A stretch of 63,637 nt of DNA, the filler included. It is 16 parts of 16 records of this genome, joined end to end, with 100 filler letters (N's around TTAATTAATTAA, not from the genome) between each part and the next. Parts side by side here need not be neighbours in the genome. Positions count along the whole stretch, not along the records: positions 52,589 to 56,996 come from SRR9670534_473; 15 more parts are not named here. One strand, 5' to 3'. The notes beneath the pieces were generated by a model, which saw only the letters and a program-made list of their open reading frames with translations, was not told where the DNA came from and did not search any database. Below are positions 7,780 to 57,339 of this stretch, piece by piece (within the stretch, counting starts at the first letter, position 1; each line of letters opens with the position of its first letter). Both the position numbers and the translations under genes were made by a program.

Positions 7780-8376
7780 ATGGGATTGCAACAGTCATTA
7801 CTAGAACGCAACCCTACAACTAATCAATGTCTATATGTACCGAAAAAGCATAGAAAACTACTAGCAAAGACTTGGTACAACGTTGTGAAAAAAAGTGATC
7901 CTCTTCAACCGCTTAAAGACGTTTTGATCCAAGATCACGAGATTCAAAATCTGTTTCCTAAGCTGAAAGGCAAAAATTTTATAGAGATTGAAAACGATGA
8001 AGAAGCTGCAAATTTTCTCAAGGGCCACAACAAGAAGATAATGAACGCAATGGAAATAGCCGTAATAGAAAAATTAAATACTGGAGAAAGCACCGAAGTC
8101 ATTAGAAGAGATCTCGTTATGATTGGAAAAAGACATGTTAAGTACGGCGATTTCAAAGACCGCTATTTCCTACTGTATAGAGACGCTCTTTTGCACATGG
8201 CTACAATCCGTTTGAAGGAAGCGAACAAGTGGAACAAGCAGACAGAGAATATTTGGATGACTGTCGTATCGTTTGTTGTAGATGCTCTAAAAGAAGGGTA
8301 TTTGAGGCAACTGCTTGCAAAACCTGAGAACGACGACAATGTCCCCCATACCAGCAAAGCTTGTGATAATCTATAA
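7780..8376 (+). CDS. Globin (intronless, MGxxxS myristoylation motif, distal His)
   Basis: A-helix LLAKTW, CD1 Phe (LFP), E7 His (FLKGHNKKIM), F8 His (IGKRHVKYG), H-helix W...V..ALKEGY. Confidence 0.85.
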   Translation: MGLQQSLLERNPTTNQCLYVPKKHRKLLAKTWYNVVKKSDPLQPLKDVLIQDHEIQNLFPKLKGKNFIEIENDEEAANFLKGHNKKIMNAMEIAVIEKLNTGESTEVIRRDLVMIGKRHVKYGDFKDRYFLLYRDALLHMATIRLKEANKWNKQTENIWMTVVSFVVDALKEGYLRQLLAKPENDDNVPHTSKACDNL

Positions 8377-8892
8377 TAAATACTTACCTCAGTTGATATA
8401 AATTGATTATTATTAATAATTAAAAATGAAATTCACCTATAGTCTTTATTCGCTCACCTATTGGTATTAATTAATTAATAATATTAACCTTCACAATTAT
8501 AAGTAATTTCATGCATAACGTTTTTAATTCCAAAGTTATTAGATCATCCATGACGGAGCAAAAAGCTTTGTTTTCAGTATGTTTTTATTAGTAAAAGATG
8601 TCTCCATCGCATATTACCAATAAAGAAAAATATGCTTGAAAATTTCGATTACCATGCTGTTACTAGCCTCTTTAGCCCAGATTGCATGTTGCTTGTTACG
8701 GGATGCCAAATGGTTCTTATTACTAATATATTATAATTATAATATGTATTAAAACAGTACAATAAATACTTTAGGTTATACATATTGAATTTTCTCGAGA
8801 TGTTATTATAATTTAATAATGTATTTTTATTAATAAATAGTGCTGGCTGCTTGTGATAGTATTGTCATGCCCCTGTTTATTGCTTTGGCAAA

Positions 8893-9456
8893 ATGGGATT
8901 AGATTTTTCCTCACCCAAACCTCTATCTTATTATAACTCAGATGAAATCCTTGGTGAAAGTAAAAGAGATGTCAAAATACTAACAAAAACTTGGTATATT
9001 GTTAAAACCAGCCATGACCCTGTACAACCTCTGAAGAATATTGTAGAAAAAAATGATCAGATCAGAAAGTTATTTCCAGCACTTAAAAATACATGTCATT
9101 TAGATTCCGATGAAAAAGCATTGGAGTTTTTGAAGAATCAGAACTACACGTTCTTAATAGCCATAGAAAGAGAGGTTATTGAAAAATTGGCAAATGGAAA
9201 GCGAAATGGCATCAGAAGTAAATTGGTTGAAATTGGCAGAAGACATCTCTCTTATGGTGGATTTAAAGATATTTACTTTTTATCATATAGAGAGGGTCTT
9301 CTTCAAATGGCTGAGGAATGTCTGAAATCCAAGAAATTGTGGAGCAATCATACAAAGTATGTCTGGAAGAGTATGGTGTCTTTTGTGATGGATGCCTTAA
9401 AGGAAGGGTATTTGAAGCAAGCATTTGAAAAGTCGGAGGACTGTTCTGGTCATTGA
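8893..9456 (+). CDS. Globin paralog (intronless, MGxxxS motif, distal Gln)
   Basis: Clear paralog of 7780-8376: KTWY.VK..DP.QPLK, LFP, IGRRHLSYG, SFVMDALKEGYL. Confidence 0.85.
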   Translation: MGLDFSSPKPLSYYNSDEILGESKRDVKILTKTWYIVKTSHDPVQPLKNIVEKNDQIRKLFPALKNTCHLDSDEKALEFLKNQNYTFLIAIEREVIEKLANGKRNGIRSKLVEIGRRHLSYGGFKDIYFLSYREGLLQMAEECLKSKKLWSNHTKYVWKSMVSFVMDALKEGYLKQAFEKSEDCSGH

Positions 9457-10021: not shown

Positions 10022-10361
10022 NNNNNNNNNNNNNNNNNNNNNNNNNNNNNNNNNNNNNNNNNNNNTTAATTAATTAANNNNNNNNNNNNNNNNNNNNNNN
10101 NNNNNNNNNNNNNNNNNNNNNATGTCATACAAAATTCAGCATTTATTATTAATAATAAAATGGTGCACCTTCTTTTGTTATTAATTATTACTAATAATTT
10201 CTTGATTGAATATTCAAGTAAAAATTACTGATTATTAATAAAATTTATCCGAACTTTGATGCTGCATTTTGCAAACATGCAAATTATTTTAGCTTGTACC
10301 AATACATATTCAAAATTGCTATTATTACATAGTGGAGAGCATTCACTGAATATATTTTCAG

Positions 10362-12839
10362 ATAAAAGACTTGGTCTTTTTCCTAGCAATTTTGATCGTA
10401 TTTTTATCAGCTTATGGAGTAGCATCACAAGCTGTACTTACTGCACGGTATAACACCACTGATGTATCATTAATTTTTCAATGGGGATCAATCAAAGAAG
10501 TGTTTTATAATCCTTATTGGCAAATGTATGGTGAGCTATTTCTTGATGGTTTGGTGGACTGTGATGCAGAGGAAGGACCAAATTCGGAATGTAATAGCAG
10601 ACCAAATGCTGCAAAAGTTTTTTATGTGGTGTTGCTGGTTATTTACATGATATTTACAAATGTCCTTCTGCTAAACTTGCTCATTGCAATGTTTAGTTAT
10701 ACTTTTCAACTGGTACAGGATAATACTGACATCATATACAAATTTCAAAGATATGCCTTGATAAGAGAATATTATGACAAACCAACTCTAGTCCCTCCCT
10801 TTATCCTTTTTTCACATATATATTTGTTAATAAAATTTTTCATCAAGAAATGTTGTAAAAGAAACAAAGATGCAACCACAAGACATGGCTTCAGTGAGTG
10901 CTATTATTAATAATATGCGAATAATAATAACAATAGCTTATTAATTTTCTAAACATTGTAAACATATTCATTAATGCAACAGAAATAATTTTTTCTACCA
11001 CTTGGATGAAAATATTGTCACAAGCTGATTTTAAATCTAAAGTCAGAATAAGACCTATATGTCCAGTTTTCGAGTAATTTTCAAAAATGTTTCAAAAACT
11101 TATATTAAAGCCCAATTATAACAATAGATGACAAATAGAACATACAGTGTGTTCGCATTATTAATAATTATACATGGTATAGATAAGTATATACAATGAT
11201 ATCACTATTATTATTAATTATGCTTATATTCCTAGAACAAATCCTTACTTCTCCTGAGCAAAATAGGATAAATACATGGGAGGATATGAATTTGAAGGAA
11301 CATTTGAGAAAAGAAGAAATGAAGGCATCTGAACGACAGGAAAATAAAATAAAACAAACTAGTGAACGGATGGATCAATTAATATCCCAAGTGGACCAAT
11401 TAATATTTCTAGAAAGTGAAAACAAAGCCAATGGTATGGCTGCGTCACAACCAGTATGTAGTCCTAATGTTGAAAAAACAGTCGAAGACCTAAAAAGTGA
11501 TTTAAAAAATGTTGTTACTCAAGTAGATCAACTTTTTAAGTACTTTCAAACGCAAAATCCTATTCATTTAAATGACAATGCTTCAACAAATATGGAACAG
11601 ACACAACAAGGAACTGAACCCAGAAGAAACTCTCTCATGCCACTAAATGTAAAGGCTAATCATGTACCTCATGTAAAATCACTCCTAAATCCATACGGAT
11701 TAACCACGACGATCAGCAGATTTGAAGTAGTAGAAACTAAAATTCCTTGGTCAGTGCCATTTCCAGAATATAAACCAACAGAATACACAGACCCTGGCAT
11801 AGTACTTGGCGTAGCTTGGGCAGATCCTGATATAACACGCCCTGTTTCAACACCTCTCTTGTTCAACTGCTATGACGGCGCGTATAAGGTACAACGAGCA
11901 AGCTGCCTAGGCGAATATGTCATTAATGAAGAGGGATTACCATTAAATCCAATGGGTAGAACAGGACTTAAAGGAAGAGGGTTGCTGGGAAGATGGGGAC
12001 CTAACTGGGCTGGAGATCCTGTTGTTACTAGGTAAACACCAAATTAATATTAATTGTAAGGATGATAATCAGATTGCTTGTGTATCATGTCTAACAAAAT
12101 CGTTTTGCAAGGTAACTATGATATGTAGTAATATGCAGTCATCTTATTATAAATAATGCCCATAATAATTATGATATGATACAATAATGTAATATCTTCT
12201 AAGATAGCCCTGACATGGGTTTCCAATAATCCAATAATAATAAATTCAAAATTACATATACTGCATGATGAGAGTAAAACATAATTCGATTACTTATGAG
12301 CTGATTGCAGATGGAAACGCAATGCTTATGGGGATGTAGTCAGAACAAATGGAATGAGAATTTTAGAATTCCTCTGCATTCAACGATCTGATTCAGACGA
12401 CTGGGCACTTCCAGGAGTAACTAACCACGTTTATGAATTAATAATTGCATAGCTAATCAAATAACGTTTTTAGGGATTTTTACCTGAAAACGGTAAAGTT
12501 CATGATGTATTAAAGGCACAGATTACATGTGATACTGAATGTTCTGAACAAATCCAGGGAAACTACCAAACGGAGTTAAGTATTTTCTTTCTAGAAGGGC
12601 ATGAAGTCTTCAGAGGTTACATGGACGATCCAAGAAACACAGATAATGCGTGGGTAGAGACAAAAGCTGTAAATTACCATGACCCAGAAGGAAAGCTTCT
12701 GGATTATTTTCAAATTCGACCTAAAGATGCCAAGTCCGTCAGATGGCAAGATGTGAAATCAAATGTGTTTTATCACGCCAGTCATAAACTTATTCTTGAT
12801 GAAGTCATTCGATATCATCAACCTTCATTTAACACATAA
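10362..12839 (+). CDS. TRPM2: TRPM2-type cation channel, 3' part (S5-pore-S6, TRP box, coiled coil, NUDT9-H domain); exons 10362-10893, 11236-12031, 12311-12416, 12474-12839
   Basis: PYWQMYGELFLD pore, NVLLLNLLIAMFSYTF, YKFQRY..I.EY..KP.L.PPF, PLNPMGRTGLKGRGLLGRWGPN, WALPGG, GYMDDPRNTDNAWVET; hand-spliced exons stay in frame. Confidence 0.93.
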
Positions 12840-16489: not shown

Positions 16490-17702
16490 CTAGGTGTCAG
16501 ATTCACCTGCCCCCTTATCATCACAGACATTTAACAGAATTTTCTCAATAGCTTCCATGAACATTTGCACCAAGCCATCTTTAAGCCATTTATCAGAAAA
16601 TAAGGGGTTTATCATAAATTTACCCTTAAAGGTTGAAACACACATAAAAAATGAACATGCATTCAAAACTGCTAACCTTGTTGGCAATTTACCCCCTGGG
16701 ACCAAGCCAAAATAATGAGCATTCAAATCCACCATTTTTGGACCAGATAGTTCTGGCTTTTTACCAGCATCACAATTGCCTAAATTACTAAGCGAGTAAC
16801 TGGACTTTAACCCCAAACCAGCAAAAAGTTCCAAGACACCTGTTGGATTCTCTTCTTGTTCCATTTGCTTCAATACCAAATTAAAGGACTTGAAGAATAC
16901 TTCGGCCATCAACTTTTTAGATTTATCACCATCCTTTTTTACCCCAATTGCTATATTCTTAACCAAGTTCCAGAACACATCCAAATTATCAATTTCTTCA
17001 TTCTTTGGTTTTGGGAAATTTGATGTTGCTGTGTCTACCAAAATTCCTGCGGACTGTGGGGTTACATTTAGACCATGGAACTTTCTCAAGTCGATCGTCC
17101 ATGCTGCTTTAATCTTTGATGGTAATACCAAATCTTTATCCTCATCCGTCAATAATACCAAAGCATAAGCACAAGCTGCCAACAACACAGGGTGAACTGT
17201 TACACCATGAGCTTTAGCAGCCTTGATGCATAAAGATGTCGCCTTTTCACTAAATGCATAAGGAAAGCATTGATAATGCACCTCCTCAGATGGCTCATTT
17301 TTATTATAGACCAATTGACGATCATCTGTACCAAAGATTCTTGCCTTCATTTTCAGAAGCCAAGCACCAATTTTGAGATAAAAAGGAATCCTTTCAAAGG
17401 ATTCAATTTGTTGCTCATTAAAATAAAGGGGTTCAGCTGCAGGACACCATGGTAGAGGTTTTTCATATTCTTCAGTGCTTTCTTCATTGATTACTCTGGA
17501 TAAAATTGGCAAAAATTGCCTATAAATGATATCAAACATTGACACTGCATCAATTATGGCATGGTGCAGCATAAATAACAAGACAAATTCTTCAGACTCC
17601 TTCACTTCAAAGTACAAAGTTCTCCAAAGTGGGCCATTTTTGGAATCAAAACCCTCAAAACCCTCTTCTTCAACAAACTTTGCCCAATCTTCAACTTTTT
17701 CC
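16490..17702 (-). CDS. Standalone condensation-domain / alcohol-acyltransferase (CoA-dependent acyltransferase fold) protein, 5' truncated
   Basis: Frame open to the contig end (..FDSKNGPLWRTLY..). HHAIIDA matches the HHxxxDG motif; also AAKAHGVTV, IDLRK and SLSNLG motifs; no introns in >1.2 kb. Confidence 0.8.
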
Positions 17703-17940
17703 NNNNNNNNNNNNNNNNNNNNNNNNNNNNNNNNNNNNNNNNNNNNTTAATTAATTAANNNNNNNNNNNNNNNNNNNNNNNNNNNNNNNNNNNNNNNNNN
17801 NNCTTTTTGTTTGTGCATGTGCCCCACTATGTCTATGACTGGCGGTTATGCGACATCTACCTCAATTGTGGTGGGTCACGTGTAACTCGGCCCCCTTTTC
17901 ATTATTAATTACAGGTAGTAATTCAATTATTGGTTTTTAG

Positions 17941-19487
17941 AGGACTTTAACGAAGTTAAGAATCAAAACAAGGTAACTAATGCCATAGAAGCAGTACGGG
18001 TTGCCACTTTGGAATCAAGGTTGGTTTTGACGTTAATGTCACACCTTGATAAATCTCTAAATCAAAAATCCCTCCGAAAATGGTTTGAAGAATTTGAAAT
18101 GCCATGCTACCTATCTTTATCCCACATTGAACTGAATGGTTTTGGAATTGATAGGGAAGCCTTACATTTGCTTATGGATGACATCAAGAATCAAATGACA
18201 ACCACACAGGCAGAAGTTGATAGACTAGCAGCAGCAGGGAAATCTATCACCATTACCAACAATGGAGAAGTTTCACGCATTTTATATCATCACTTAAAAC
18301 TAAAGGTTGAGCCAGATGTCGCCCAAGGCAAAGCGCTGCCTGGGAAAAAAACTAAACACCTTTCAACAAGAAAAGATGTTCTTGAAAAACTTGCTAGCCA
18401 ACACCCATTGCCAGGTTTAATCTTAAAATGGAGAAAACTTAACAATGCCTATAACAAAACTTTACTTCAAATGGAAAAATTCGCAGTTGGTAACGCTCTG
18501 ACGAGAATGTGGAGATTGCATGGAACTTGTTCTACGTTTACAGAGACTGGAAGAATACACATGAGAGATCCAAATTTACTATCTGTTCCCAGGGATATCG
18601 ACCTGAATGATAGTGATGGTTCTGGAACAGTTGTAAGTCTAAGAAAGCTTTTTGTACCATTTGAGGGAATGATCTTGGTATCAGCCGACTTTTCGCAGTT
18701 GGAACTGAGACTTTTGGCGCATTTGTCTCAAGATAAAAATTTAAACAAATTCTTCAACTCTGGTGGTGACGTTTTCAAAATGATTGCAGTCCAGTGGAAA
18801 GGTCATGATTCCATCGACGCTGTCACCAATAGCGAGCGAAATACCGTTAAACAGATATGCTATGGCATTATATATGGAATGGGTAGTAAGGCTTTGGCAG
18901 AAAAGCTTGAAATTTCTGTTGAAACTGCTCACATGTATAAAGAACAGTTTAAAGCAGCTTTCCCGGGCATTGATCCTTTTATTAGCGAAACTAAACATTT
19001 TTGTCTTGAAAATGGTTATGTTGAGACCATTGTTGGTAGGAGAAGGTATTTACCAGAGATTAAGAGTAAAAATGCTGGACATGTAGCCAAAGCAGAAAGA
19101 CAATCCGTGAACACAAGAATTCAAGGCTCTGGTGCTGACATAATCAAAAAATGTATGGTCCTTATTCAAGAAAAATTTCGTCAACAGAGTTTGGTTTCCA
19201 ATATAACTTACAAAAGCTTTTGTGAAAGTAAGTTAGTTGTATTGTTTGATAGAGTTACTAACTGCTACTCTTTAGATGACAAACTTAAGCTTGACGACTT
19301 GATGACAAAAAGCCATTTAATTTTACAGTTGCATGACGAGTTAATTTTTGAAATACCAAAATTGCACTTTAAGCAATATTGTAGCATTATTAGAAATTGC
19401 ATGGAAAATGTCATGGCTGAGTTAGGTCTTCATCTGGTTGTTAACATAAAAGCTGGGGATAATTGGTCAGAATTGTTTCCTATTTAA
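17941..19487 (+). CDS. POLQ: DNA polymerase theta, family-A polymerase domain (3' exons)
   Basis: EMP...L..IELNGFG, STRKDVLEKL...HPLPGLILKWRK, TGRI....PNL..VPRD, SADFSQLELRLLAHLS, KQICYGIIYGMG, ERQSVNT.IQGS.ADI.K, LQLHDELIFE. Confidence 0.9.
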
Positions 19488-20595
19488 TAATTGATAAATT
19501 CTTTTACTTAATCTAACAACTTTTTAAAATATTATTTAGTAAATAATTTGTTTGTGTTGTTTTGTTCACCTGTAGGTGATAACCCTTAATAGGTAATTAT
19601 TAATAAGTATAACCATTTTATGGTCTGTTTAGTAAACAGTGCTTACTATATAATATAGTCATTTCAGTTTTATTCTGATGATCAAATGTATCAATTATTC
19701 AGATTTTTATTGAGAACGATATTAATATGATTACGTTTTAAAAGTGTATACAATAAAATGCTGACTTAATTTAATGTCATTGTTGTAATAATTCTTTGCA
19801 AAAAGGCCGCCAATCATTTTAATACCAAATAAACTTACACTAATAAGTATAATAAATATTGAATTAACAATCACAACATCTTTATTTCAAATTGAAATTT
19901 TCAATTGATAATACAATTTTGCTAATGTTTTGAGTCAAAACTTTTGACACTTAAAATTTGTCATAGGACCTATCATCAAAGTCTCATGGTGCACCATCAT
20001 GTCCATGCAAAAATGTAATACAGGTAATCTAGAAGTGCTCTATATACCTCTGTAACAAAATTATTAAAATTTTTATGTAGAACATCTCTTAGAAGTTCTA
20101 TATATTTCCATGAAAAAATTAACATTTTGCTTAGAAAATCTCATAAAAGTACTTGATATATTATCTCTATGAGAAAATTACTAAAATTTTACTTGAANNN
20201 NNNNNNNNNNNNNNNNNNNNNNNNNNNNNNNNNNNNNNNNNTTAATTAATTAANNNNNNNNNNNNNNNNNNNNNNNNNNNNNNNNNNNNNNNNNNNNGCA
20301 CTTTATTTCGCACATACCCGATATTATGAATAATAACTTCATGTTCTATAATTGCACAACTACTTTGAAATATGTAATATTATTAATAAACATGTGATCT
20401 TGTTTGTCTATTAGTATTATAATATTAATAAACTACAAATAAATACCTGTAACTGTAGTATTGATAATTATTACACTGTTATAACATTCAAGTATATTTA
20501 TAATATATTTTCATAATTATTATTAATAACTATAGTTAATTAGCATTTTTAGATAAGTCACTTTTGACTTCATTTGGAATTGCTGCTCTTGAGGT

Positions 20596-21340
20596 ATGGT
20601 TGATTGCTATGATAGTCAGTTTGGAGGAGTTGATTCAGGTGCCTCAAAGACATTTCCTGCACAGTCTTCTTCCTTACGAAAAAATGGACATGTAATGCTG
20701 AAAAGTAGACCATGCAAGATCGTCCATAAGAATACATTTAAAACTGGAAAACATGGCCATGATAAAGTTCACTTGGTTGGTGTTGATATTTTTACTGGCA
20801 AAAAATATGAGGGTATGGCTACTTCAACGCATAACATGGACGTTCCGGTTATTAAAAGAACGGACTTTCAGGTATGTTGGCTAATGAAATAATAATTATC
20901 AAAATGTTTCTCATAAATGATGATAAAGTTTTATAAATATTTGAAGCTTGTTGATGTAAACGTTGAAGAAGGATTTTTAAGCTTGATGGATAATGCGGGT
21001 GAAATGAAGGAAAATATTCGAATTCCTGATGGAGATTTGGGTACTGACATAGAGGAGAAGTTTGATTGTGGCGATTCCTATATGGTATTTCTATATGTAG
21101 TTAACTTTTTTTATTAATAACCACCATTAGTGCTCTACTAATTACTTATAAGTTATTAACAAAGTGCCTATATCATATATTATTTTCAGTGAAATAATAT
21201 GGCAGGTTTATCTGACTGAAAAATTTTAATTCGTGTTTTAATCAACTGATTTTGACAACTACATTTTTTAGGTTACGATTTTAGCAGCAGTGGATGAAGA
21301 AGCAGCAATTGCTATCAAACCAACGGGCAAGAATAAATAA
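20596..21340 (+). CDS. EIF5A: Translation factor eIF5A, divergent (exons 20596-20871, 20947-21084, 21272-21340)
   Basis: [53 protein letters not shown]-terminal [16 protein letters not shown]. Confidence 0.93.
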
Positions 21341-22049
21341 ATAAATGGTTAGCTGAATTGAAATTCAATTATTGAATACCTACGTTTTCTTCTAATTTTT
21401 ATTTGATATTACAAAAATATTATTATCTAATTGATAAATATACAGTTATTAATAATTATTACAACTACTACTTACTTTTAATAATATATAATAATTATAA
21501 TAATAATAATAATAACAACAACAACCAATATCATGATATCATGATGCATCATCTTTAAGTATCTTTATTTGTAAGTTATGAAACGATTGTAATTTATAAC
21601 AGTTCATAGGCCTAGAAAATTCATGTTTTTAAAAAGATTTGGTTGGTATCTATCTAAAACTGCATGTTACTCTTGACATTTCCAAAATTATTTGTTTGTG
21701 AACCACCCTAATACACAACCTTTATATCATATAAATTATATATGCAGTGTAAGTATCTATAAATGCTAAATCGTCAAGATATTGACTCAAACAGTCGAAG
21801 TTACCCCTGTGAAATTGTCTTTTTTTCCTAGGTTAATAAAATTTATTATAAATTAGTAGCTATATATAATGAATAACTTATTATAACTTTGAAATCACAA
21901 TACTATTCATAATCTAAAGGTAGCCATGGAAGCCAAATCATTTCAATGATGGCATCCATTGAACTGAGAAATTCTGAAGTTACTGATTTGCTTTAGTAGC
22001 CCTAATAAAAATAAGGATTTGGCTCTTTTTATTAATAATAACAATTAAT

Positions 22050-24104
22050 ATGAATGCAGAGGACGTTTTGTATTTGGAAACAGAGGAGCATTCGTTAGAC
22101 TCCATTATTTGGTTTATTTTTTATGATTGCTCTCTTTATCAAGATAGCTACGTGAAATGGGAACAAATATTTGGCTGCCAACCAGTGGATTTCAACATAA
22201 AAGCCTGGTGGAAAAATACAATTTATGACAATTTTTTTTCTAAGAATAAAAGAAATTTGCACAATCGCGTGCTATTTTTACTTGACCCTTGCCTAAAAAT
22301 GTCCATTCAGCCAAGGCAAACAAATTCTTTAATGTCAAGAAAGTTTTACATGACAGAAGCAATTGAATTTTTTAGGAGAAAATATTATGGACAAAATTCA
22401 CTTGAGGCATTGCATGAAATAGGGGCAGAACATGCACGTTTTGTCATATTTTTTCTACACGATATTGTCAAGAGAGTGTTAAATCAAAATAGTATAGTAT
22501 TGTTCCAGTCTACGGCTGATGTAGGTTATCATTTCTGTTTAAGTGCTGAAAATGTAGACCTTTATAACACTTACCGTAAGAATTGGTCTAGATATTATCC
22601 CAAAATAAGCTATCGGTGGTATGACAGTTGTTTCTATTCGTTAGAAGATGAATTTGATGATTTTTTACTGGCTTTGGAGTTGGAGAGTGAAGACAATGAA
22701 ATAGAAATTCTATACCTGTTGATGACTGCAGGTGAAAGCATTGCTCAAGGAGAAGAAGCTTTAAATGAACTATTGTTTTTGGAGTATGATTCAGAAGCAC
22801 TTATTGATCTTTATTCAAGCACCAGTAATGAAGATAAAGTAAAGATAAAATACAAGTATAGATGTCGTTATCAAAATATCATGGTAAAACATTACCTGCA
22901 GCTCACCTTTATGAAAAACATTTACTTGCAACTATTTCCATTTGAGGCTAAAAAATCTTGTATTTCTTCTGATGATTTTGCAGCTTTAAACAAAACCAAG
23001 ATTGCACAAGGTTCTGAAGCAGTCATATATAAAACACCAATTGGAATAGTGAAGAAGTACAAACTTGCAAAGGGAAAATTTAGCTCAAGTTGGCTTTCTA
23101 CAATGGAAATTCCATTAGCCTTAAATGAGGAATTTGATGAAGTTGTTCATATTCACCAATGGCTTTATGATGCAAGTTTATTTCCAGAAAAACTTATGAC
23201 TGGGGTTGTGGTAGAATTCTGCTCATTTGGGCCTTTAGACAATTTTAACGAAATTTTGGAAGAAAATGTTGAGAACTTGAGGTTAAAAATTTATATTAAG
23301 ACAAAGGTTCTAACAGATGCTGCATTTGGAGCATCATATTTGCAGATGAATACTGATTATAAAATAGGACATTTGGACATTAATAAAAGTAACATCTTGG
23401 TTGGTGATAAGTTTACTGGCAAAATTTCTGATATCCCTAATATGTTCAATGTTACTGATGATGAAAGAATGAGCCCATTTCCAGTTGTTTATACTACCTT
23501 ATATGCTCCACCTGAAATTGTTATAAAAGAAGAATTTGAACAATTAACAGGCCCTGATTTAGTTTGGGCTGATGCTTACAGTTTTTCTTACACTGCATAT
23601 GAGATATTTGAAAACAAAACTGTTTTTGAGTCAAAAACTGGTCATAATTTTGCAGTCACTGCAATTAAGGCCAACCCCAGAGTATGGCATAGAGAGAGGA
23701 CGAACAGTCCTCAATTCGGTGAAGCATTTCCAACTCAATTTAGGAAGCTCAGAAGTGACCTCTCAGAGGTCTTAACAAAAGGATGGCATAAAAATATGAA
23801 GAAAAGAGCCAAAATGCCCGAAATTTGGCTTATTTTTGAAGACATTCTTCAAAAGCAGTTTAATAATGCTATGGTGATGAAAAACAGAGATAAAATGGAA
23901 GTATACTTTGAACATTTTATATCAAGCTGTAATTCAATTGCATCAATTGAAGACAATATAATGATGGAATTGAACGACATTGCACCAAGTTTTGATAAAA
24001 GAATGAGATATCCCCTAGCTAGTGAATGGATGGACAATCATAATAATATATCCAGTATAACATGGGGCAGGTTGGCTCAAGCGATTGTTCATCTAATGAA
24101 ATAG
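22050..24104 (+). CDS. Intronless atypical protein kinase / probable pseudokinase with an unknown N-terminal region
   Basis: 684-aa ORF with kinase subdomains in order: IAQGSEAVIYK, IVKKY, VVVEFCSFGPL, GHLDINKSNILV, KISDIP, YAPPE, ADAYSF, KRAKM.EI. Confidence 0.8.
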   Translation: MNAEDVLYLETEEHSLDSIIWFIFYDCSLYQDSYVKWEQIFGCQPVDFNIKAWWKNTIYDNFFSKNKRNLHNRVLFLLDPCLKMSIQPRQTNSLMSRKFYMTEAIEFFRRKYYGQNSLEALHEIGAEHARFVIFFLHDIVKRVLNQNSIVLFQSTADVGYHFCLSAENVDLYNTYRKNWSRYYPKISYRWYDSCFYSLEDEFDDFLLALELESEDNEIEILYLLMTAGESIAQGEEALNELLFLEYDSEALIDLYSSTSNEDKVKIKYKYRCRYQNIMVKHYLQLTFMKNIYLQLFPFEAKKSCISSDDFAALNKTKIAQGSEAVIYKTPIGIVKKYKLAKGKFSSSWLSTMEIPLALNEEFDEVVHIHQWLYDASLFPEKLMTGVVVEFCSFGPLDNFNEILEENVENLRLKIYIKTKVLTDAAFGASYLQMNTDYKIGHLDINKSNILVGDKFTGKISDIPNMFNVTDDERMSPFPVVYTTLYAPPEIVIKEEFEQLTGPDLVWADAYSFSYTAYEIFENKTVFESKTGHNFAVTAIKANPRVWHRERTNSPQFGEAFPTQFRKLRSDLSEVLTKGWHKNMKKRAKMPEIWLIFEDILQKQFNNAMVMKNRDKMEVYFEHFISSCNSIASIEDNIMMELNDIAPSFDKRMRYPLASEWMDNHNNISSITWGRLAQAIVHLMK

Positions 24105-39372: not shown

Positions 39373-40890
39373 ATGAAAATACTGCCTCGCAATGCTAAAT
39401 TCATACAAATGCTGGCTAGCAACTACAGAAATCCCTCAGGATGGCTTGGTCGCTTTATAGCGGTGAGTGATTTTCGTATGTACATTTATATTTTCGTACT
39501 TTCATATTTGTATCCATGGAGGTACACATACATATACGTTTTCACAGGCCGGCCCGTGTATCGGCCCGATACATCATGTATCAATGTATACATTGTATCA
39601 TACATGTAACCTCTAATTTTGCTGCAGAGAAACTGCTAAATTACCTAATAAATCATGAACATCGTTGAAGAATTATTGTTTTGAATGTGTGCCATGGTAG
39701 TGCCGTTATTTGTTACCCCATGTTAGCAAATGAAATCAATTATAGAAAATTTATTAATAGACTATATTTATTAATAACCATTTGTTTAATTAGCTTATGA
39801 AATCAGTTCCATCCGTTGTTTTTATTGTTCATAATAATAAGAAGATTTACATAGTTATAGTTATATATTTTGGAATATTAAAACATTATTATTGGTTGCT
39901 AATGTCTAACTTGTAGCTACTATAATAGTGTCTAGTAGTGTCTATAATAGTATACTAGTCTATAGGTACTAATAGATGTCGAACGTGTTTCATTGGAAAT
40001 TCTCCCTACGTAACAATTATTGTAATTCTTCAGAACATGTGACAGTACATTTTATTTATTATTAACTATCTATTGTTTTATATTTGTTAATGCCATAGCT
40101 AACGTTACCATATTCATACAAGCAACCATATTATAACAGGTACCTATAATAAGTGTAATAATAATAATAATAACCAATGCACTTAATAATCTTACACATG
40201 ATTTTCCCATACGTATTACATGATATAACCTATATCTAACCTATGTATCGATATGCCATGCTTAGCGACAATTTGAACATAACAAATTTTTGGAGAAACG
40301 AGCAGTTGGTTTATGCAAAATAAAACCTAATGACACTGTTCTAGAAATAGGGTACGGCCCTGGTTGGGGACTGAAGTTTGCAGCAAATAAACTGAAAGGT
40401 ATGTATCTTACTATACGATAGTAACCAAAAACAATAATTGCATATTCTTCATATTTTAGATGGCAAAGGTGTTGCTTATGGTGTAGACATTTCTTCATTG
40501 ATGTATGATACAACCAATAAAAAGTTAAAAAAGGAGATTCAGAACAAAACTGTTGTACCTGTTGTTGGTACAGTTTACCAAATGCCTTTTGTTGATTCCT
40601 TCTTTGACTCTGTATTTCATGTAAATTGCTTTTATTTTTGGGATGATATGCAGAAAGCTGTTCGCGAAATCCACCGAGTTATGAAACCTGGAGCTCCCCT
40701 TATTTCTACATTGCATCTACATGTTCTCAAACAAAGAGTTCGCGATGGAATGCTGAATTATGGACCCAATTGGGATCCCGTTTTTTATATGACTCATTTA
40801 GAGCATGCAGGATTTGAAGATATTTATTTTGAATATCTTACGCATAGGTCTATTAAATACGAAGCCATCATTGCCAAATGCATAAAATAA
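39373..40890 (+). CDS. Class I SAM-dependent methyltransferase (Methyltransf_11-like); exons 39373-39462, 40266-40398, 40460-40890
   Basis: RNPSGWLGR, VLEIGYGPG (motif I), YGVDIS, MPF.DSFFDSVFHVNCFYFW, EIHRVMKPG. Confidence 0.9.
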
Positions 40891-40926: not shown

Positions 40927-42760
40927 ATGATAGATATTATCAATGAACCAATAAAATATGATATTTTTGTTCAAAATTATATGCAACCTAATCTTCCAGT
41001 ATTGTTTGGATCCTGGTTGACGTCAAAGTGGAAGTCTGTGGAAGAATGGGTTATTGATGAGAAGCCAAATTTCAAATTTTTATCTGATACCTTCGGCGAA
41101 GCAGAGGTTCCTGTTGTTTCCTGTGGTAACAGCACTGCTACCGTAGATTCAGGCAAAACACAGCCATTCAAGGACTATATCTCATATTGGATGGAATACC
41201 AAGAAAAGAACTACGACTTATCTTTACCTTCACTTTATCTCAAGGATTGGCATTTTCAGAGGTGTAGTAGCTACTGTAGCAGTAGTAAACTTGCTATAAA
41301 TAATTTGTTATTAATAATAACAAGTTATTGATAGTAAATACAAGATAATAATTCTTAAGAATGTATTACATGATAAGCTTTGTTGATGACTTTTTTAATT
41401 TTAGGACATTTCCTAATTATGAAGCATATGAATGTCCCATCTATTTTCAAGATGATTGGATTAATTCTTTTTGGATAAATACCAAATGCGATGATGATTA
41501 CAAATTTGTTTACATTGGACCTAAAGGAACTTGGTAATTTGACATTTTATACAACAGTCATTTAATTTATTTTGTAATTAAAATATAAGGGCTGCCGAAT
41601 AGCGAGATAGCCACTAATACGACACCACTGGACATATAATTAGGTATTTAATAAGAAACAGAAGAGAGTAGCAATAAAAGAGCAAGAATATAGAAATTGA
41701 ATTTGAGTACATTTAAAATTATATGACTAATCATTCGTTATTTTGAACTGCTGTTTGATTGTATACAGATCTATTTAACGTATAAATAAGTTCTTAAGGC
41801 CATCTACTTATGCTACATGAAATCATTTCATGGTACGTAATTAATTGAAGAAAAATCTAATTTATTATAGATTGGAATTTTTTAACTTTTAAAAATTTAG
41901 GACAGGGCTACATGCAGATGTTTTTCGTTCATATTCATGGTCTGCTAATATATGTGGCAAGAAACTTTGGATTTTCGTCAAACCAGGTTATCGTTGTTTA
42001 TTTACATTTTTTACTTATTTTTTTTGTTAAAAGTTTTTTAGGGAAGGAAACGTTGTTCCAAGACAGTCTAGGATATTTGATCAGTGATATTAGAACTTCT
42101 GATCATGCTCAAGACGAAGATGCTGTCATAAAGTTAGTTCAAAATCCTGGTGAAGTAATATTTGTCCCTTCTAATTGGTTTCATCAAGTCGTGAATTTGG
42201 TTTGTTTCTAACACTTACGTTATTGATTTAACATTAATAAAGGCTACTATCAATAACAATAATGCAACAACTGAAACACGATATATTATGATGTGTAATA
42301 TATAGTTTTTGTTGTAGGAAGATACAATTTCTGTAAATCACAACTGGGGTAATGCCTTTAACATATCGAAAATGTGGTCGTTTTTGGCTGATTCCCTTGT
42401 CCGAGTCCAGAAGTCTCTAAGTGATGTAAGAGATATGGAAAACTGGGATGGTCAATGCCAAGTATGCTACAATACTACTATCAGTACCAAATACACCGAC
42501 ATCTATTTCTAAAATTTTAGCTTGTGTTGAAGGCTTTAGAAGGTATGAATTTTTGCGACTTTGTTAAATTGCTTGAGCATGGTATCAACAAATTACTAGT
42601 CAAACCTTTTATGAAAGAAGATACTTTAAGCTATGAATTGAAGGAATCTGTCAAGGTTTTAGACTCACTTTTGCGTCATGAATTTTTCATCTCAGCAAAA
42701 GATACAGAATTAGTCAATTTAGTACATGAACTAAGAACAAATGTTCTAAATAAATTGTGA
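40927..42760 (+). CDS. JMJD4: JmjC-domain 2-oxoglutarate oxygenase JMJD4 (multi-exon)
   Basis: PNLPV, LYLKDWHF, DDYKFVYIGPKGTWTGLHADVFRSYSWSANICGKKLW, QNPGEVIFVPSNWFHQVVNLEDTISVNHNW.N. Confidence 0.95.
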
Positions 42761-48983: not shown

Positions 48984-51835
48984 TCAAAAGGAATGTTTAG
49001 AAGAAATCTTCTTGATCTCCACCATCAAATGGTCAATGTTCAATAGTTCATCCTTACCAGGCAACTGCTGAAAATGGTTTCGTATTGTTGTACTAAATGT
49101 ATGGTAATATGTAAGAAGTTGATGTATAGCGGCTTGATAAATAAATCCACCAGTTTTAAAGTTTGTAAACAAGCCAATAATATCGTTATAAATATGGTCT
49201 AGGCTTGACCGCCATTTATTGTTAAAATCTCTAATTAAGTTCGGGAATAACCCATCATATTCTCTTAACTTGGCAACTTCTTCTCTCTTAATAATATTTT
49301 CAGTTTGCCGAACAAAGCTTAACAAACTTCCAAAATATTTGGAAAGTAGAAGTTCCACGTATTCTTCAATAAGTTTATCCATTTCTTTTCTGTTTATATC
49401 AAACTGTGGCAATGAGGTTGTTACATCTTTAACTTTTTCATTGATAACACTTAGAATTATATCAAGGTTATTTAACAGAAACACGATTTGATTCTTTCTA
49501 TCAACAAACGCATTCGATATTCTTTGAAGGAACATTTCAATAGCCACCTTCAATTCAGACAGAAGTTCATTTTCAATTCTGGAACAGATGGCAGCAATAA
49601 CCCCGTCATCACCTGGAAATTCCGAGAGTGTCATAAGGTTAATTCGAATAATGGCTCCGTAATACTCAGAAAACCTTCGAACAACATAATGAGGGCGCAC
49701 ATCCAACTGGTTGTAGCGTTCTGGATCGGCAGCGTCCTTGATGCTTTGAATGTTAAGTTTCAAAAGATAGGTTAAACGTGGAACTAAGATGTTCAACAAG
49801 TTTGCACAGTAATGGTCCATGATAGGAACGTTACGCTTTCTTAACATTTCTCTGTATCTCAACATTATGTGAACGCAAATGAAGATTAATAAGGAATCGT
49901 AGCAGTCCCCCGAATAATTTTCTACATGAGCATGGTATATACCTAGACACTTTCCAAGTACAGACATGAATAAGTCATACGCCGTTTGACCTGAAACAAT
50001 GAAAAAATCACAAAGGAACAGATATTCTCTTGAGCAATTATCTACCAACAAGTATTGAAAGCTACGGAACAGAGCTTCATAAGAAAGAGAATTGGCAGTA
50101 AATTGGTGTGGTACAATGATGGGACTTTCAAGATCGGCAGATAGTAATAGTTCTTTTTTGCCCAAAGTAAATAATGTTGTACGATTTTTGATAAGTGGTT
50201 TTGAAGAAAACAAGCTCTTCTTAACTGTATCTTCAGCGCCAAGGAGATCATCTTTATCAGGCTTTTCATCTTGAAGTAGTCTTAGCAGTTTCGAAAGGTA
50301 GCTTTTGAAATAACTAAAATAGACTTTGCTCATAGTATTAACGTATTCCTCCTTCACCTCCCTGGCAATTCTTCGGTCGTTTGCCAACAAAAATTCCATG
50401 AAAAATCTGTATTTTAGTAGTGCTGCTTGAGGAATTTGAAAATTTGCCATTGGCTTTCGAAACTGTTGTATTTTTAGCAACAAAAATTCACGTATCTTCG
50501 AAATGGCTTTTATTTTAAGCTTTTCTAACTCATCTTTCACATCAAAAACAGAAACGGACTCTTTAAAAGACTGTTCTTTTAAAAAGTTGATTTTATAATT
50601 CAATTCATGTAATTGCTCAACAAAATCGTATTCTGAAACAGGTGTCTCCAATATGTGGTGAATCATTGAATCAGAGATGACTAACTGATCCTAATGAATA
50701 GACGTAAAAATTACGTAATGCCTTCAGATACAGGCAGTAAGGTTCTGAATTGAATACAGTAGACACGATACTATTATCCTATTACAAAGTTATATGTCTT
50801 ATAAAGTATAGACTCCATAATATGTACATAGTAGAATATTGTGATGGAAGAACCTACCGTATTGATGTTCTGACTCAGAACTTCTGAGCTACTGTACATC
50901 CAGTAGTACATTGTACAATGATTGTAGTATTGATACATATCTACATTGCAGTGCTACTGCTCATTGAAGTACAATGTATTGCATAGTCTGTACGGTGCTA
51001 CCGTAATTTAATGCATAGTATGTACCACATAATACGTAGAGTTACCGTATGCAGCATACGGTATGCTACAATTATGTACATAGGTAGGTGTACCTATGTA
51101 CATAATTGTATCATACACCTACATGTGTACATAATTGTATCATACAGTAACTCTACGTACATGTACGCAAATGTACGTACTGTACGTAAGTATTTAGTAT
51201 TACATAATTGTAGCATACGTTAACCGATGGTTAGGTACTAACCCTCGGTAAATCATTACTGTTACAGCACACATCACTGCAGCTTGCCAGGCACAAGGAT
51301 ATTACGAAGGAATCCTTGGCAAGGATGTTGGAATAATATCCTTGGCCAGGTTACCTATGGTATAATATCCTGGCCCAGGTACCTATGTTTGTACCTATTT
51401 ACGTAATATTCTAAATAGAGAGCATACCACAAACCGGGCAAGTTCATTTTGAATAGACTGTCTGTTTTTCAGTTTCACATTCATAGCATATGAATGCTGC
51501 TGGAGGTTTTGGATTTCAGAACTTATGTTATTTAGATTTGACTGAAAACCACGAAGAATTCCTTCTATTTTCTCCAAAACAGAATCACAACCCTGAATTT
51601 CTCTGTAAAGTTTTGCAACGTTTTCGGATTCTTTAACATAATCTGCAATAGTGCTATCTTCTAGAGAACTCAAATTTTCTTTTACATTCTTAGCATGACT
51701 TCTTAAGTCGGAATCTTGTTCCAAAATTGCCTTTACTGTTTCGTCGTCTACGTCTTCTGCATTTTCGAATTCAAGACTAGGCGAGGTTAAATCCAGCTGG
51801 CCCAAATCGAGTGACAAATCATCTGCATATGCCAT
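48984..51835 (-). CDS. VPS52: GARP/EARP subunit VPS52 (exons 51428-51835 and 48984-50690)
   Basis: DLR......E..L..LE..TI.DY.KES, FQSNL.NISSEIQ.LQ, LEKLKIKA..KIREFLL, QIPQ..LLKY, EYVNTMSKVY.SYFKSY, RPHYVVRR.SE, FLLNN.D.IL, LMVEIKK; spliced in frame. Confidence 0.95.
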
Positions 51836-52595
51836 TGTTGGTATGTATTAACTAATAATAATAATAATAAAAACTAGAAAAACATACATACATAGGTAAA
51901 TAAATTATTAATAATAATAGTTATTAATAATGATAAGAAGTCATTGTTCTTATTACATATTAGGTATGTATCTAGAAACTTTTGAAACATAACAGTACGC
52001 ATAGGTATGCATTGCAAACTATGAGCAATTCCCACTAGATTTATTATGTACCTACGTACGGTATGTACATATGTATGGTACAAATTACCTATACCATATA
52101 CATACATAGGTATGGTATAAATTACCTGTACCTAATACATACAATATATTATTATAATAATGTATTAGTAGTAATACATATCTTATAAGATATCTATAGA
52201 TATCTATGACACTTTTGAAATTTAAATCTTAAAAAATGTATATATACTTCTTATTATACTAAAAAAAATTAAAAAACTACATTGATATTAAAATTTAATT
52301 ATTAAATATTAAATTTAATTAAACTAAAAAACTAAACAAATTGAATTAGAAATATAAAGTTAACTAATACTACATACTTCATTTATAATTTCAGGTATAT
52401 CTTATGCAATATTTTAGTAAAATTTACTAAAATTTTTTTTATTTACTTAACTTACAATTTTTTTATTTTATTTTAAAATTTATATACTNNNNNNNNNNNN
52501 NNNNNNNNNNNNNNNNNNNNNNNNNNNNNNNNTTAATTAATTAANNNNNNNNNNNNNNNNNNNNNNNNNNNNNNNNNNNNNNNNNNNNTCAAAGA

Positions 52596-53025: not shown

Positions 53026-54090
53026 GTTGAAACAATAAATGATACTTTTATGATTGTAAGTGGTGTACCAAGCAGAAATGGCAGTAAGCATGCGGAGGAA
53101 GTAGCAGATGTCTCTTTGGAGATGAGAAAAGCAGCCAAAAATTTTGAAATTCCTCACATGCATAATAAAAAGTTGAAAATGAGAATTGGAATTCATACCG
53201 GTTAAGTGTATTTATTAACTTATGTTTTTATTAATAATAAAGTGCTATATTTATTCATTTTGATTTAGGATCTGTTGTTGCAGGAGTTGTTGGCAAGAAG
53301 ATGCCCAGATATTGTCTTTTCGGTTTGTTGTTAGCACCACATAATTAGTAGTACCACCATTTATAAAACTGTTGACATTTTTTAGGAGACACAGTTAACA
53401 CTGCATCCAGAATGGAATCAACTTGCGAAGGTTAACATTCTAATAAGCATTACTTATTATGTATTACCCGAGTATCAGAGCATAAATGTATACATAATGT
53501 ACTACAATGCCATTTAATAATTATTAATATTTAATAATAATTGCTAATTAATTTTGTTTAATATAATATATTACATAGTATACTATTGTACTTTGCTAAT
53601 TATTAATTTGACTGTTACTACTGTGACAATTAATAATTGTAATATTGCAATTGTAATATTATTATTAATAATAAGCTGTTGACAAAATTGTTCTTAGCAA
53701 TGAGGATTCATATATCAGACACAACTTACTCATATCTGTTAAAAACTGAGAAATATGATCTGGAAGAAAGAGGTGAAATCGAAGTTAAGGTAAACCACTT
53801 GGCTTTATTAAATATTCTACTGAGCTATGGTTACTGTATTTGCCAATTGGCTTTAAAGCAGCCTTGATAGTACACTTACTTATTATACACTATTAATTAT
53901 TATTAATATTAATTAACTACTATATCAACTACACGTGCAGTCTTCCAGGGTAGACGCTGACAGCGTCATGCTGTATTAACACTGTAAGATATAGTCACCT
54001 TTTATTGCTATAATATAGTATTAACAAATTAAGGGGAAAGGATCAATGATTACATTTTGGCTCCTCGATTACACAAGGAAAAAAAGTTAG
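53026..54090 (+). CDS. Guanylyl cyclase catalytic domain, 3' exons (~53026-53200, 53269-53322, 53386-53430, 53698-53789, 54034-54090)
   Basis: [78 protein letters not shown]; GTP-specifying E and C residues present. Confidence 0.93.
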
Positions 54091-54181: not shown

Positions 54182-54514
54182 TTATCCCCAAAACATGACA
54201 TTTCTTCTTCCGTCTCTTTTATTAATGTAATCACTTGATTGTTCTTTTTCTCGTGAATATTTGGTTTCAAGAAATTTCAGGAACTCTTTAAACATTTCTT
54301 CTATCCCTTTTATTGTTTCCTCAGGCTGATCCAATTCCATTGGATCTCTCTTTCCCCACATCATCAGGTTTTTTGGTTTCTTCTCTAATTCCAGAAAACC
54401 ATCTGATCCATCTGATCCAAGTTTGGCAGCGTGTCCATATGGTATTATTAATAACAATACAGATATGCAACAACTCATGAATAATACAACTAAAGAAATT
54501 CTTGATATTGCCAT
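54182..54514 (-). CDS. Neuropeptide precursor encoding two W-amide peptides
   Basis: Hydrophobic signal peptide, KK-PKNLMMW-GKR, acidic spacer, KR-DGRRNVMFW-G-stop; single exon; TATATAA ~95 nt upstream. Confidence 0.85.
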   Translation of the reverse strand: MAISRISLVVLFMSCCISVLLLIIPYGHAAKLGSDGSDGFLELEKKPKNLMMWGKRDPMELDQPEETIKGIEEMFKEFLKFLETKYSREKEQSSDYINKRDGRRNVMFWG

Positions 54515-54775
54515 ATCCACTTTTCTATTTTTTAATTCTTCTGAAATTTATATCGTCTACAGCGTAACACCAAAAGTATTTTTGTTTGTCGATGAAAGAT
54601 TGTTGTTATATATAAATGAAATAAATCAATATCAAAACAATGTCAATCATTATTATTTATATCAATATCTGTATGTACCTAGTAATAACTATAACAACTT
54701 TGACGCTGAACGCCTACAAAAGCACTAAAAATAAAATATGGGTGGGTGTCTAAAGTTTAACGATATTTATAGCAA

Positions 54776-56825
54776 CTAATCCTCTTCACCATCTGATTCT
54801 TCTTCAATGATGGCTTTGGGGATAGAAAGGTGCCTTTCTTTCTCTTTCTCTTCTCTTTGGGTCCAAAACGTGTGAAATATTGAACTTCGATCTCTTAAAA
54901 GTATTGCTGGTTTCCCAGATTCAACTACCTATAAAAGTGCGTAATTAAGAACACTTATTAAGGGACAACTAACTAATCCACCTACCATTCCATTATCGAT
55001 CACAATTACTTTGTTGCAGGAGAGGATTGTACTCAATTTATGAGCAATAATGATTACCGTATAGTCTTTGAATGTTTTATATAAAATGTCTTGTATTATA
55101 CCATCTGCACTTGTTGCGTCTAAAGACGCTGTTGATTCATCTAGAATGAGTAATTTTCCGCAATTTTGTTGCGTCGCTTTTAAAAGTATTCTTGCTAGTG
55201 ACAGGAGCTGCAGTTCACCACTTGAGAAATTACCACCATTTTCTTCAATAGCGCCATCTAGCAGACTTGATGGAAACTTGCTTTGAATCTAAGATTATTT
55301 TTTGCCATGAAATGTATAGGCCTATATAATTTAAATACTAACATTTTTCTTCAGCTTTACTAGATCTAAGACCTTCCATATTTCAGCATCTGTAAATTGA
55401 TTGTAAGGATCAAGGTTGAAGCTAGGATGTTAATAAAAATATGCTTTATTGAATTATGATTATTTATATTATGTATTTATTAGTATTTCCTACCGTACGC
55501 TTTCTGTAAATGTAACTAACTCTTGAGGTATAATTAAGAAAGATGATCGTATTTCATTCATATGAAGTTCTGATATATCTACCGTGTCAACGTGTATTGA
55601 ACCCATGTAGGGATCAACTAGTCGACATAATGCTGACACCAAAGTTGATTTTCCTATTTCAAGATCACAAATTTTTAATGAGTTTTTATATGCTGTTATG
55701 AATTACCACTGCCAGTTCGTCCAACGATGCCAAATTTGTCTCTTGGCTTTATATTAAAAGATATATTATGCAAAATTGATGGTTCATTTTCTTTATATTT
55801 AAGGGAGACTTTGTCAAATTTTATGTTTCCATTAGAAGGCCATTCATTTGACGGCTTGTTTCTGGTTACCAAATCGTAAGCACCTTCTTCTTCAATGTTC
55901 TACAAATTGCAAGTCAATACTTGCTATATGACCACAACATTATTAGCTGAATATAAATAAAAGACATAATAGCTACACTAATAAAGTAGTACTTGAATGT
56001 AGTCATTCAGCCTTCCAACAGAAAGCAGTCTTGCCTCTACCTCTGTAACAAATCGAACCGTTAATTGGAGCAGACCTGTGATCTAAATACAACAATTTAT
56101 TCATAGCTTTGACATAATTTTATGAGAAAATTAAGCAATTACCACATTAATTAGCTATGTATCTTTACAGTCTTATTTAGATAGATAAATTGTGCATATA
56201 TTTTCACAAAATGTTTTGAAAAAAAGATGTCGCTTATATTAATTTATTTTCAAATTTTCTCACTATCATGTTGTAAGGTATAAAATTGAAACCTGGATTG
56301 CATATGCTAAAGCCAAGCCAGCAAATTCAGCGTGCAAATTGTCTCTTAGTAGAACTGCTAAAAGTGCTGCAGTCGTAGTGATGACAATTGTTAACAAATC
56401 TAATCTAATGGCCAGCCATTTGGTAGCACAATTAAATAGCAAAAGGGGCACTGTGTTGTTATCCAATAATGTTTGAAACCTATTTTAATAAGCAAAAGAA
56501 GTATTTTCATAATAATAGCATTTATATTTTAATCCTTACTTTTCATAAAAATAATCCACTTTATTGTATGCTTGAATGACAGGAAGACCTTGAACAATGC
56601 AGCTAATAAAGCTGAATATTGGCCCTCTCGTAGTATTGTCAAAAAATTTGAGTTGTTTAATGCCAGCACGAAACATAATGTTTAAAAAAACAAATAAAAT
56701 AACAATTGGAACAGCAGCAATTAGAAACCATGGAAAGACAAAAGTAATTGTTATGAAACAACCAGCAACCGTCAATACATTTTCGCACACGTTATGCAGT
56801 AGGAGAGGTAGCCAAACGTCAACTA
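54776..56825 (-). CDS. ABCC/MRP transporter (ABCC5/11/12-like), TMD2-NBD2 half
   Basis: DVWLP, FPWFLIA, DNTTRGPIFS, WLAIRLD, GLALAYAIQ, WPSNGNIKF, GIVGRTGSGKST, IIPQE, NLDP, GGNFSSGELQL, ILDESTAS, IIAHKL. Confidence 0.92.
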
Positions 56826-57339
56826 AATTAATAAGCAATAGCAATTATTATTAATAAGACTTTGAACGATGACTATTTTTGGAGACGAAACGCTAAGTTA
56901 CACAAATTTGAAAAATATCAACCTATGACTAAACTGGGATTAGATCCACATCTTACACTATGTCAGAAAGTAAAATTGAACATTGCTAGAATGAGTNNNN
57001 NNNNNNNNNNNNNNNNNNNNNNNNNNNNNNNNNNNNNNNNTTAATTAATTAANNNNNNNNNNNNNNNNNNNNNNNNNNNNNNNNNNNNNNNNNNNNAGCG
57101 ATATTAGGATATAATAAATTACTCTTTTCTACATAAACAATTTTATTGTCTCATCCTAATATACTTTTTTGATTTTCAATTTTTTAGATCTAATCTGTAT
57201 TTGTTTTCAGAATGTAGTAATTCTGCATATATACAATACCTAAGTAAAATAATAATCTCAATTTAATAAAACAGGCTAAAGCTTTTTATTTTTCATTTCA
57301 TAAATAAAAACAGACATTTTTACAAAACAAAAGTACACC

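Follow-up and report, generated by a model that had tools for sequence, protein, structure and literature searches.

A candidate lineage-specific precursor of two tryptophan-amide peptides in an AT-rich animal genome

The open reading frame (ORF) we describe here is a short one, squeezed between two larger genes. It lies in what we call the window, the whole 63.6-kb stretch of DNA that was analysed, which strings together 16 contigs with an artificial linker, N44-TTAATTAATTAA-N44, at each of the 15 joins (30 runs of 44 N; for example at 52489–52588 and 56997–57096). Because these linkers are artificial, gene neighbourhood across them is not genomic, and the gene density of the window is that of short contigs. 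The GC content is about 0.30, that of an AT-rich animal genome. The contig at 52589–56996 carries three genes, counting the ORF: a cyclase on the plus strand, the ORF itself and, also on the minus strand, an ABC transporter. The features that matter for what follows are these.

54182–54514, minus strand: coding frame of 110 codons plus a TAA stop, running from ATG to TAA; codon score 0.147 bit/codon, z 4.87
54428–54514, minus strand: predicted signal peptide, residues 1–29, from hydropathy, a modelled helix at 4–32 and a rule-based cut
54347–54382, minus strand: first peptide unit, with K45-K46, P-K-N-L-M-M-W, Gly54 as amide donor and K55-R56
54221–54346, minus strand: acidic spacer, residues 57–98; 42 residues with 12 D/E and 6 K/R and an amphipathic helix core at about 66–79
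54185–54220, minus strand: second peptide unit, with K99-R100, D-G, R103-R104, N-V-M-F-W and Gly110 as amide donor directly before the stop
54034–54090, plus strand: last coding exon and TAG stop of a guanylate/adenylate cyclase gene, convergent to the ORF
53050–53205 and 53643–53792, plus strand: upstream exons of the cyclase, Pfam Guanylate_cyc
54776–54922, minus strand: last coding exon and TAG stop (54776–54778) of an ABC transporter gene, upstream of the ORF on the same strand
55490–55702 and 56536–56844, minus strand: exons of the ABC transporter, Pfam ABC_tran and ABC_membrane
54606–54614, minus strand: TATATATAA, which resembles a TATA box and precedes the ATG by 92 nt, a consensus match only
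54541–54546, minus strand: TTTCAG, 27 nt ahead of the ATG, a speculative candidate for an acceptor in splicing or trans-splicing
54001–54006, minus strand: AATAAA, the first one past the stop (176 nt beyond the TAA) and inside the last cyclase intron, a consensus match only

A sequence-only reading of this DNA had placed a 110-residue ORF at 54182–54514 without giving its strand. The ORF is there, on the minus strand, in a stop-to-stop frame of 121 codons. Around its start codon, position −3 is a purine and position +4 a G, and the same strand holds no other ATG between 54648 and that start. The earlier reading called the ORF intronless; the frame is complete without splicing, and that is all the word can be taken to imply. 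Both peptide segments it quoted, with their basic flanks and glycines, were found in the translation. A short stretch rich in Gly, Ser and Asp follows the signal-like part and leads into the first unit. The Asn codons of the two N-x-M-x-W-G units are not identical (AAC and AAT), while the motif itself is kept. The acidic spacer with its amphipathic helix was borne out as well: it has twice as many acidic as basic residues, and its helical hydrophobic moment reaches a maximum of 0.74 over residues 68–78 (Eisenberg scale). A single-sequence AlphaFold2 model of the product places helices at residues 4–32 and 64–104 with disorder between them. Its mean pLDDT is 65.9, rising to about 90 over residues 11–20 and 92 over residues 71–80, and with a pTM of 0.30 it has no globular fold. 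There are only two cysteines, residues 15 and 16, both in the signal region.

The N terminus has the look of a signal peptide. An n-region with a single arginine (Arg5) is followed by an uncharged hydrophobic core of 19 residues (6–24), with Kyte–Doolittle values up to 2.7, and the rule-based end has Pro25 at −5 and then G-H-A at −3 to −1. Signal peptidase would likely cut after Ala29. For a signal peptide this core is long, and it may instead be a membrane anchor. The codon score of the signal part is negative (−0.247) and that of the mature part is 0.288.

What might such a protein be for? We think the ORF is probably a real, lineage-specific precursor of amidated peptides, and we put the probability of this at about 0.62. 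A Gly-Lys-Arg or a terminal glycine after a basic-flanked peptide is the standard signal for amidation, and the ORF has the feature generic to such precursors, peptides bounded by basic sites with a C-terminal glycine, here as KK...G-KR and KR-DG-RR...G-stop. In our proposed scheme, a single-exon gene would give rise to a 110-residue secretory prohormone, from which the signal peptide would be removed after about residue 29. A prohormone convertase would then cut at K45-K46 and/or after K48, at K55-R56, at K99-R100 and at R103-R104, a carboxypeptidase would trim away the basic residues, and peptidylglycine alpha-amidating monooxygenase would convert Gly54 and the C-terminal Gly110 to amides. 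The predicted products are (PK)NLMMW-amide and NVMFW-amide, both of the form N-hydrophobic-Met-x-Trp-amide, and their presumed target would be a G-protein-coupled receptor or a peptide-gated channel. For the acidic helical stretch between them we suggest a role in sorting or as a spacer.

The C termini of the predicted peptides appear well defined; their N termini less so, since unit 1 could begin at Pro47 or at Asn49. Proline is unfavourable for convertase cleavage as the P1' residue, and so a cut directly before Pro47 is disfavoured. If the cut fell after K48, where P3 and P4 are both basic, unit 1 would yield a pentapeptide of exactly the same layout as the second one. Cleavage at a single basic residue that has another one 3–6 positions upstream has mass-spectrometric support (Thiel et al. 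2021, PMC8557429).

The peptide-precursor part of the sequence-only reading thus finds support in the small-prohormone anatomy and, as set out below, in the coding statistics; its further proposal of a new family rests on negative searches. Several other readings have to be weighed.

The first is that the gene is real and its product a small secreted or membrane-anchored protein that is never processed, the W-G-basic sites being incidental or having some other role. Any small protein that is secreted, or anchored in the membrane as a type-II protein, could have a coding-like composition and a hydrophobic N terminus. The core, at 19 residues, is long, a confident 40-residue helix covers much of the mature part, and the candidate peptides number only two, so that the argument from repetition is thin. 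Against this stand the sites themselves. N.M.WG occurs twice in the six frames of the 63.6-kb window, both times inside this ORF, and both times with basic residues before it and either K-R or the stop after it. Among 1.5 million random 110-residue ORFs with the base composition of the window, 282 had at least two amidation sites (basic-x(3-12)-G-dibasic/stop), and 50 of those 282 had a signal-like start too; yet none of the 282 carried peptides as alike as the ORF's own, likeness being an identical last residue with at least three of the last five positions common to both. The lack of cysteine outside the signal region and of a predicted globular fold also speaks against a protein that works unprocessed. 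We hold it unlikely.

The second reading accepts a peptide precursor and makes it a very divergent member of a family that already has a name, either the Wamide superfamily (MIP/allatostatin-B/GLWamide) or ambulacrarian luqin. Sequence searches gave no link to any family. Pfam profiles returned no family for the product at E up to 10, and the best match in the PDB had an E value of 0.69 and was no relative. A word-indexed search of 5.8 billion proteins found neither a relative nor the exact sequence, and a HMMER pass over 1.84 billion representatives gave no credible relative; its one match (P0121, E 5.7e-4) is a 1262-residue low-complexity repeat protein that we judged spurious. Thus none of these four collections held the clear match to a named precursor that, by the sequence-only reading's own account, would have removed the novelty. 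Among metagenome contigs there were 80 pattern matches, none related to the ORF product, and a self-search of the 63.6-kb window found no second copy of the precursor. MMWamide, MFWamide and longer forms were not found in searchable full texts. In the same texts NVMFW-type strings occur in four papers, and the three of these that were listed are unrelated, judged by title.

Protein-language-model neighbours give a lead of another kind. Eight of the best 10 are peptide-hormone precursors (DH31, PDH, galanin, spexin, gastrin/CCK and NPFF), and myosuppressin is found among the unnamed clusters. Scores in this protein atlas were 0.87–0.90, with 117–147 of 256 features in common, which is graded as chance or distant. 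At the level of a lead, then, these neighbours agree with a hormone precursor in kind, not in family.

Comparison with the known Trp-amide families has to be made on motifs. Wamides are repetitive proneuropeptides in which cleavage sites flank short amidated peptides ending in Trp (Williams 2020, PMC7270403). The ORF is like them in being a secretory precursor with flanking cleavage sites, a Trp followed by a Gly amide donor, and more than one copy. It differs in having two copies only, in its pre-Trp residues, M-M and M-F as against G-L or G-A/V/T, and in having no detectable sequence similarity to the superfamily (MIP/allatostatin-B/WWamide/GLWamide). The Trp pair of MIP/allatostatin-B peptides is usually six residues apart. 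Each candidate peptide here has a single Trp and none at its N-terminal side, which sets the ORF apart from MIP/allatostatin-B, a second, N-terminal Trp being highlighted for bilaterian MIPs (Williams 2020, PMC7270403, Figure 2 legend). GLWamides end in Gly-Leu-Trp-amide, or in G-A/V/T-W-amide in some medusozoans (PMC7270403, PMC11087051); the ORF's units end in M-M-W-G and M-F-W-G, with no G-L-W.

Luqin deserves a closer look. Ambulacrarian luqin ends in F-M-R-W-amide, and the ORF's peptides share with it a C-terminal pattern of hydrophobic-Met-x-Trp-amide. The luqins of echinoderms do end in Trp-amide (Williams 2020, PMC7270403). The ORF has no Arg before the Trp and no C-terminal Cys pair, as luqin/RYamide would require. 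Its first peptide begins at least 17 residues past the predicted signal cut, not directly after it as in luqin, and there are two copies where luqin has one. The earlier exclusion of MIP/AstB, GLWamide and luqin therefore holds on sequence.

Other Trp-amides fit no better. CCWamide/agatoxin-like precursors have eight conserved Cys in the C-terminal peptide, and RGWamide/APGWamide precursors have two C-terminal Cys 20–30 residues apart (Thiel et al. 2021, PMC8557429). As described there, both resemble the ORF in being short precursors with a C-terminal aromatic amide. None of the eight Cys is present in the C-terminal part of the ORF, which argues against the first, and the ORF has neither G-W nor a C-terminal Cys pair, which argues against the second. 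Short Trp-amides are also described from Nematostella (LRWamide and QWamide; PMC11087051) and from Bolinopsis/Mnemiopsis (NPWamide; PMC9525235). According to these sources, such cnidarian and ctenophore peptides are like ours in being short and in coming from small, clade-restricted precursors without outside homologs; by the same descriptions their pre-Trp residues (L-R, Q and N-P) set them apart. MWa or FWa strings are absent from the main texts of PMC11087051 and PMC9525235. Short, lineage-restricted Trp-amides thus look common in these accounts, none of the cnidarian and ctenophore examples compared having an M-x-W-amide ending.

How much weight should be given to these differences? The likeness to the luqin ending favours a hidden family tie. 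So does the observation that what is conserved between phyla may come down to a few residues; yet Trp-amide ends occur without kinship in AKH, APGWamide, luqin and some sNPFs (Williams 2020, PMC7270403 for both points). The ORF lacks an N-terminal Trp, G-L-W, an Arg ahead of the Trp and a pair of Cys at the C terminus. We regard membership of a named family as improbable. Judged by its sequence, the ORF would fall within the descriptive definition of a Wamide, with two copies, and outside the specific families. We would call it a Wamide-type precursor in its working, yet an orphan, not demonstrably a member of any named family.

The third reading is that there is no gene here, only a chance open frame in UTR or intergenic DNA between the cyclase and the ABC transporter, with a prohormone look that is coincidental. 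In 400 simulated windows, first-order Markov copies of our own, ATG ORFs of at least 100 residues arose by chance at 0.83 per window, and ORF length by itself is weak evidence for a gene. No homolog turned up in the 5.8 billion proteins or the 1.84 billion representatives, and very many windows were scanned, so rare coincidences will turn up. The position adds to the case. Two convergent genes flank the ORF, their stop codons separated by a gap of 685 bp, and within it the stop of the ORF is 91 nt from that of the cyclase and its ATG 261 nt from that of the ABC transporter. Two 3' UTRs should fall in this gap, leaving little room for a promoter; on structural grounds, so tight a fit is what weighs most against an independent gene.

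What speaks against chance is rarity and codon usage. Of the 70 ATG ORFs of at least 60 residues in the window, ours alone combines a signal-like start with one amidation site or more. A signal-like ORF with one amidation site appeared in 28 of the 400 simulated windows, any ORF with at least two sites in one, and a signal-like ORF with at least two in none. The random ORFs described above tell the same story, with 50 signal-like, two-site ORFs per 1.5 million and none with related peptides. For codon usage the reference was 4,507 codons from the homology-backed exons of the window. Against a composition null of −0.14 ± 0.059, the ORF's score lies 4.9 standard deviations up, a value reached by 0 of 20,000 random ORFs, and it is typical of real exons: homology-backed exons cut into slices of 110 codons average 0.168 ± 0.07, and the ORF stands at the 34th percentile of these slices. 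In a scoring whose training set included one out-of-frame stretch, its frame comes out above its five other frames and 15th of 66 ORFs, and the overlapping plus-strand frame is negative (−0.067). Given the rarity in simulations and the exon-like codon usage, the frame is very probably coding, and we consider a chance frame without a gene quite unlikely.

Three further candidates were rejected: a repeat or transposon, since the locus is single-copy in the window with only short AT-rich matches elsewhere; an RNA gene, there being no Rfam family or tRNA; and an alternative last exon of the ABC transporter, whose preceding exon ends in phase 0 by our reading and, spliced to TTTCAG, would read K-N-stop.

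If the ORF is a gene, how would it be expressed from so tight a space? The window offers one instance of similar compactness, a methyltransferase ORF (40438–40890, plus strand) and the first exon of a JmjC-domain protein (40927–41331, plus strand), which lie 36 nt apart on one strand; a TTTTAG precedes the second ATG by 14 nt. In eight of the 10 start regions inspected, the 55 nt or so ahead of the ATG contain a pyrimidine-rich AG, a count made with no randomisation control. These upstream AGs and the 36-nt gene pair may point to spliced-leader trans-splicing and operons. With TTTCAG 27 nt before its ATG and this other closely spaced same-strand pair in the window, the ORF may share a trans-spliced operon with the ABC transporter gene, as its downstream cistron. 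On the other side of the ORF, in the last cyclase intron, a perfect 15-base palindrome with 7-bp arms (53953–53967) is found some 35 nt past the AATAAA, counted along the ORF strand.

And whose genome is this? One guide is VPS52, whose best matches are 45–54% identical. It has 870 matches with E≤1e-20, of which 120 were listed, and every named row among these 120 is bilaterian. In a quick tree of the query and 34 of those 120 rows, picked for taxonomic spread, the query falls inside no clade, whether of the protostomes or of the deuterostomes sampled, and has an end branch of 1.34 against a median of 0.13. Four other proteins of the window are absent from the protein collection. The host appears to be a deep-branching or fast-evolving animal without a close relative in the databases, and a non-bilaterian would be compatible with these data. 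With such a host, blank homology searches say little about the age of the peptide family.

Several exons are long for an animal, among them those of VPS52 (568 residues, 48984–50690, minus strand) and of a family-A DNA polymerase (521 residues, 17922–19487, plus strand), and there is a long kinase-domain ORF (705 residues, 21987–24104, plus strand). Such long exons suggest large-scale intron loss.

Other genes of the window are worth recording in their own right. A 418-residue ORF at 16490–17746 on the minus strand, running into a linker, matches the Pfam Condensation domain (NRPS-type) and has the top codon score in the window. It has only four homologs, all unnamed and 29–35% identical, and is odd for an animal. 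Two single-exon globin genes stand in tandem on the plus strand (7738–8376 and 8860–9456); Pfam Globin was scored on the first only, and the M-G starts of both could be N-myristoylation signals. An ORF with an eIF5A N-terminal domain (20593–20892, plus strand; Pfam E 5e-30) appears to differ from the usual sequence in several places near the hypusine site and may be a divergent paralog. A TRPM-type channel gene occupies 10350–12839 on the plus strand. Its ion-transport exon has its best PDB matches among TRPM2-like structures, with 6co7 first at 127 bits as compared with 112 bits for TRPM2 entries such as 6mix, a difference that is not decisive for placing the host. By eye, the exons that follow appear to encode a NUDT9-type C-terminal domain, for which there is no Pfam match.

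What would a real precursor mean? The relationships of MIP, GLWamide, luqin and the lineage-specific forms are still debated (Williams 2020, PMC7270403), the similarity among them being confined to a few residues, and the peptides of this ORF, if real, would add one more orphan ligand to the short Trp-amide signals. Orphan precursors of this kind are routine finds. It would be a long shot for all of the larger picture to hold together: a gene that founds an unrecognised N-hydrophobic-Met-x-Trp-amide family, in a host without a close sequenced relative, perhaps as the cistron of an operon. The two pentapeptides are cheap to synthesise, which makes receptor deorphanisation and behavioural assays direct. 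Much depends on the host. Should it prove to be a well-studied protostome, this would be one more lineage-specific precursor, such as every neuropeptidome survey brings. Should it belong to a lineage thought to lack amidated Trp peptides, a sponge, say, or a deuterostome such as a tunicate, Trp-amide signalling would be extended there, and the finding would matter for the question of how many times such signalling was gained or lost.
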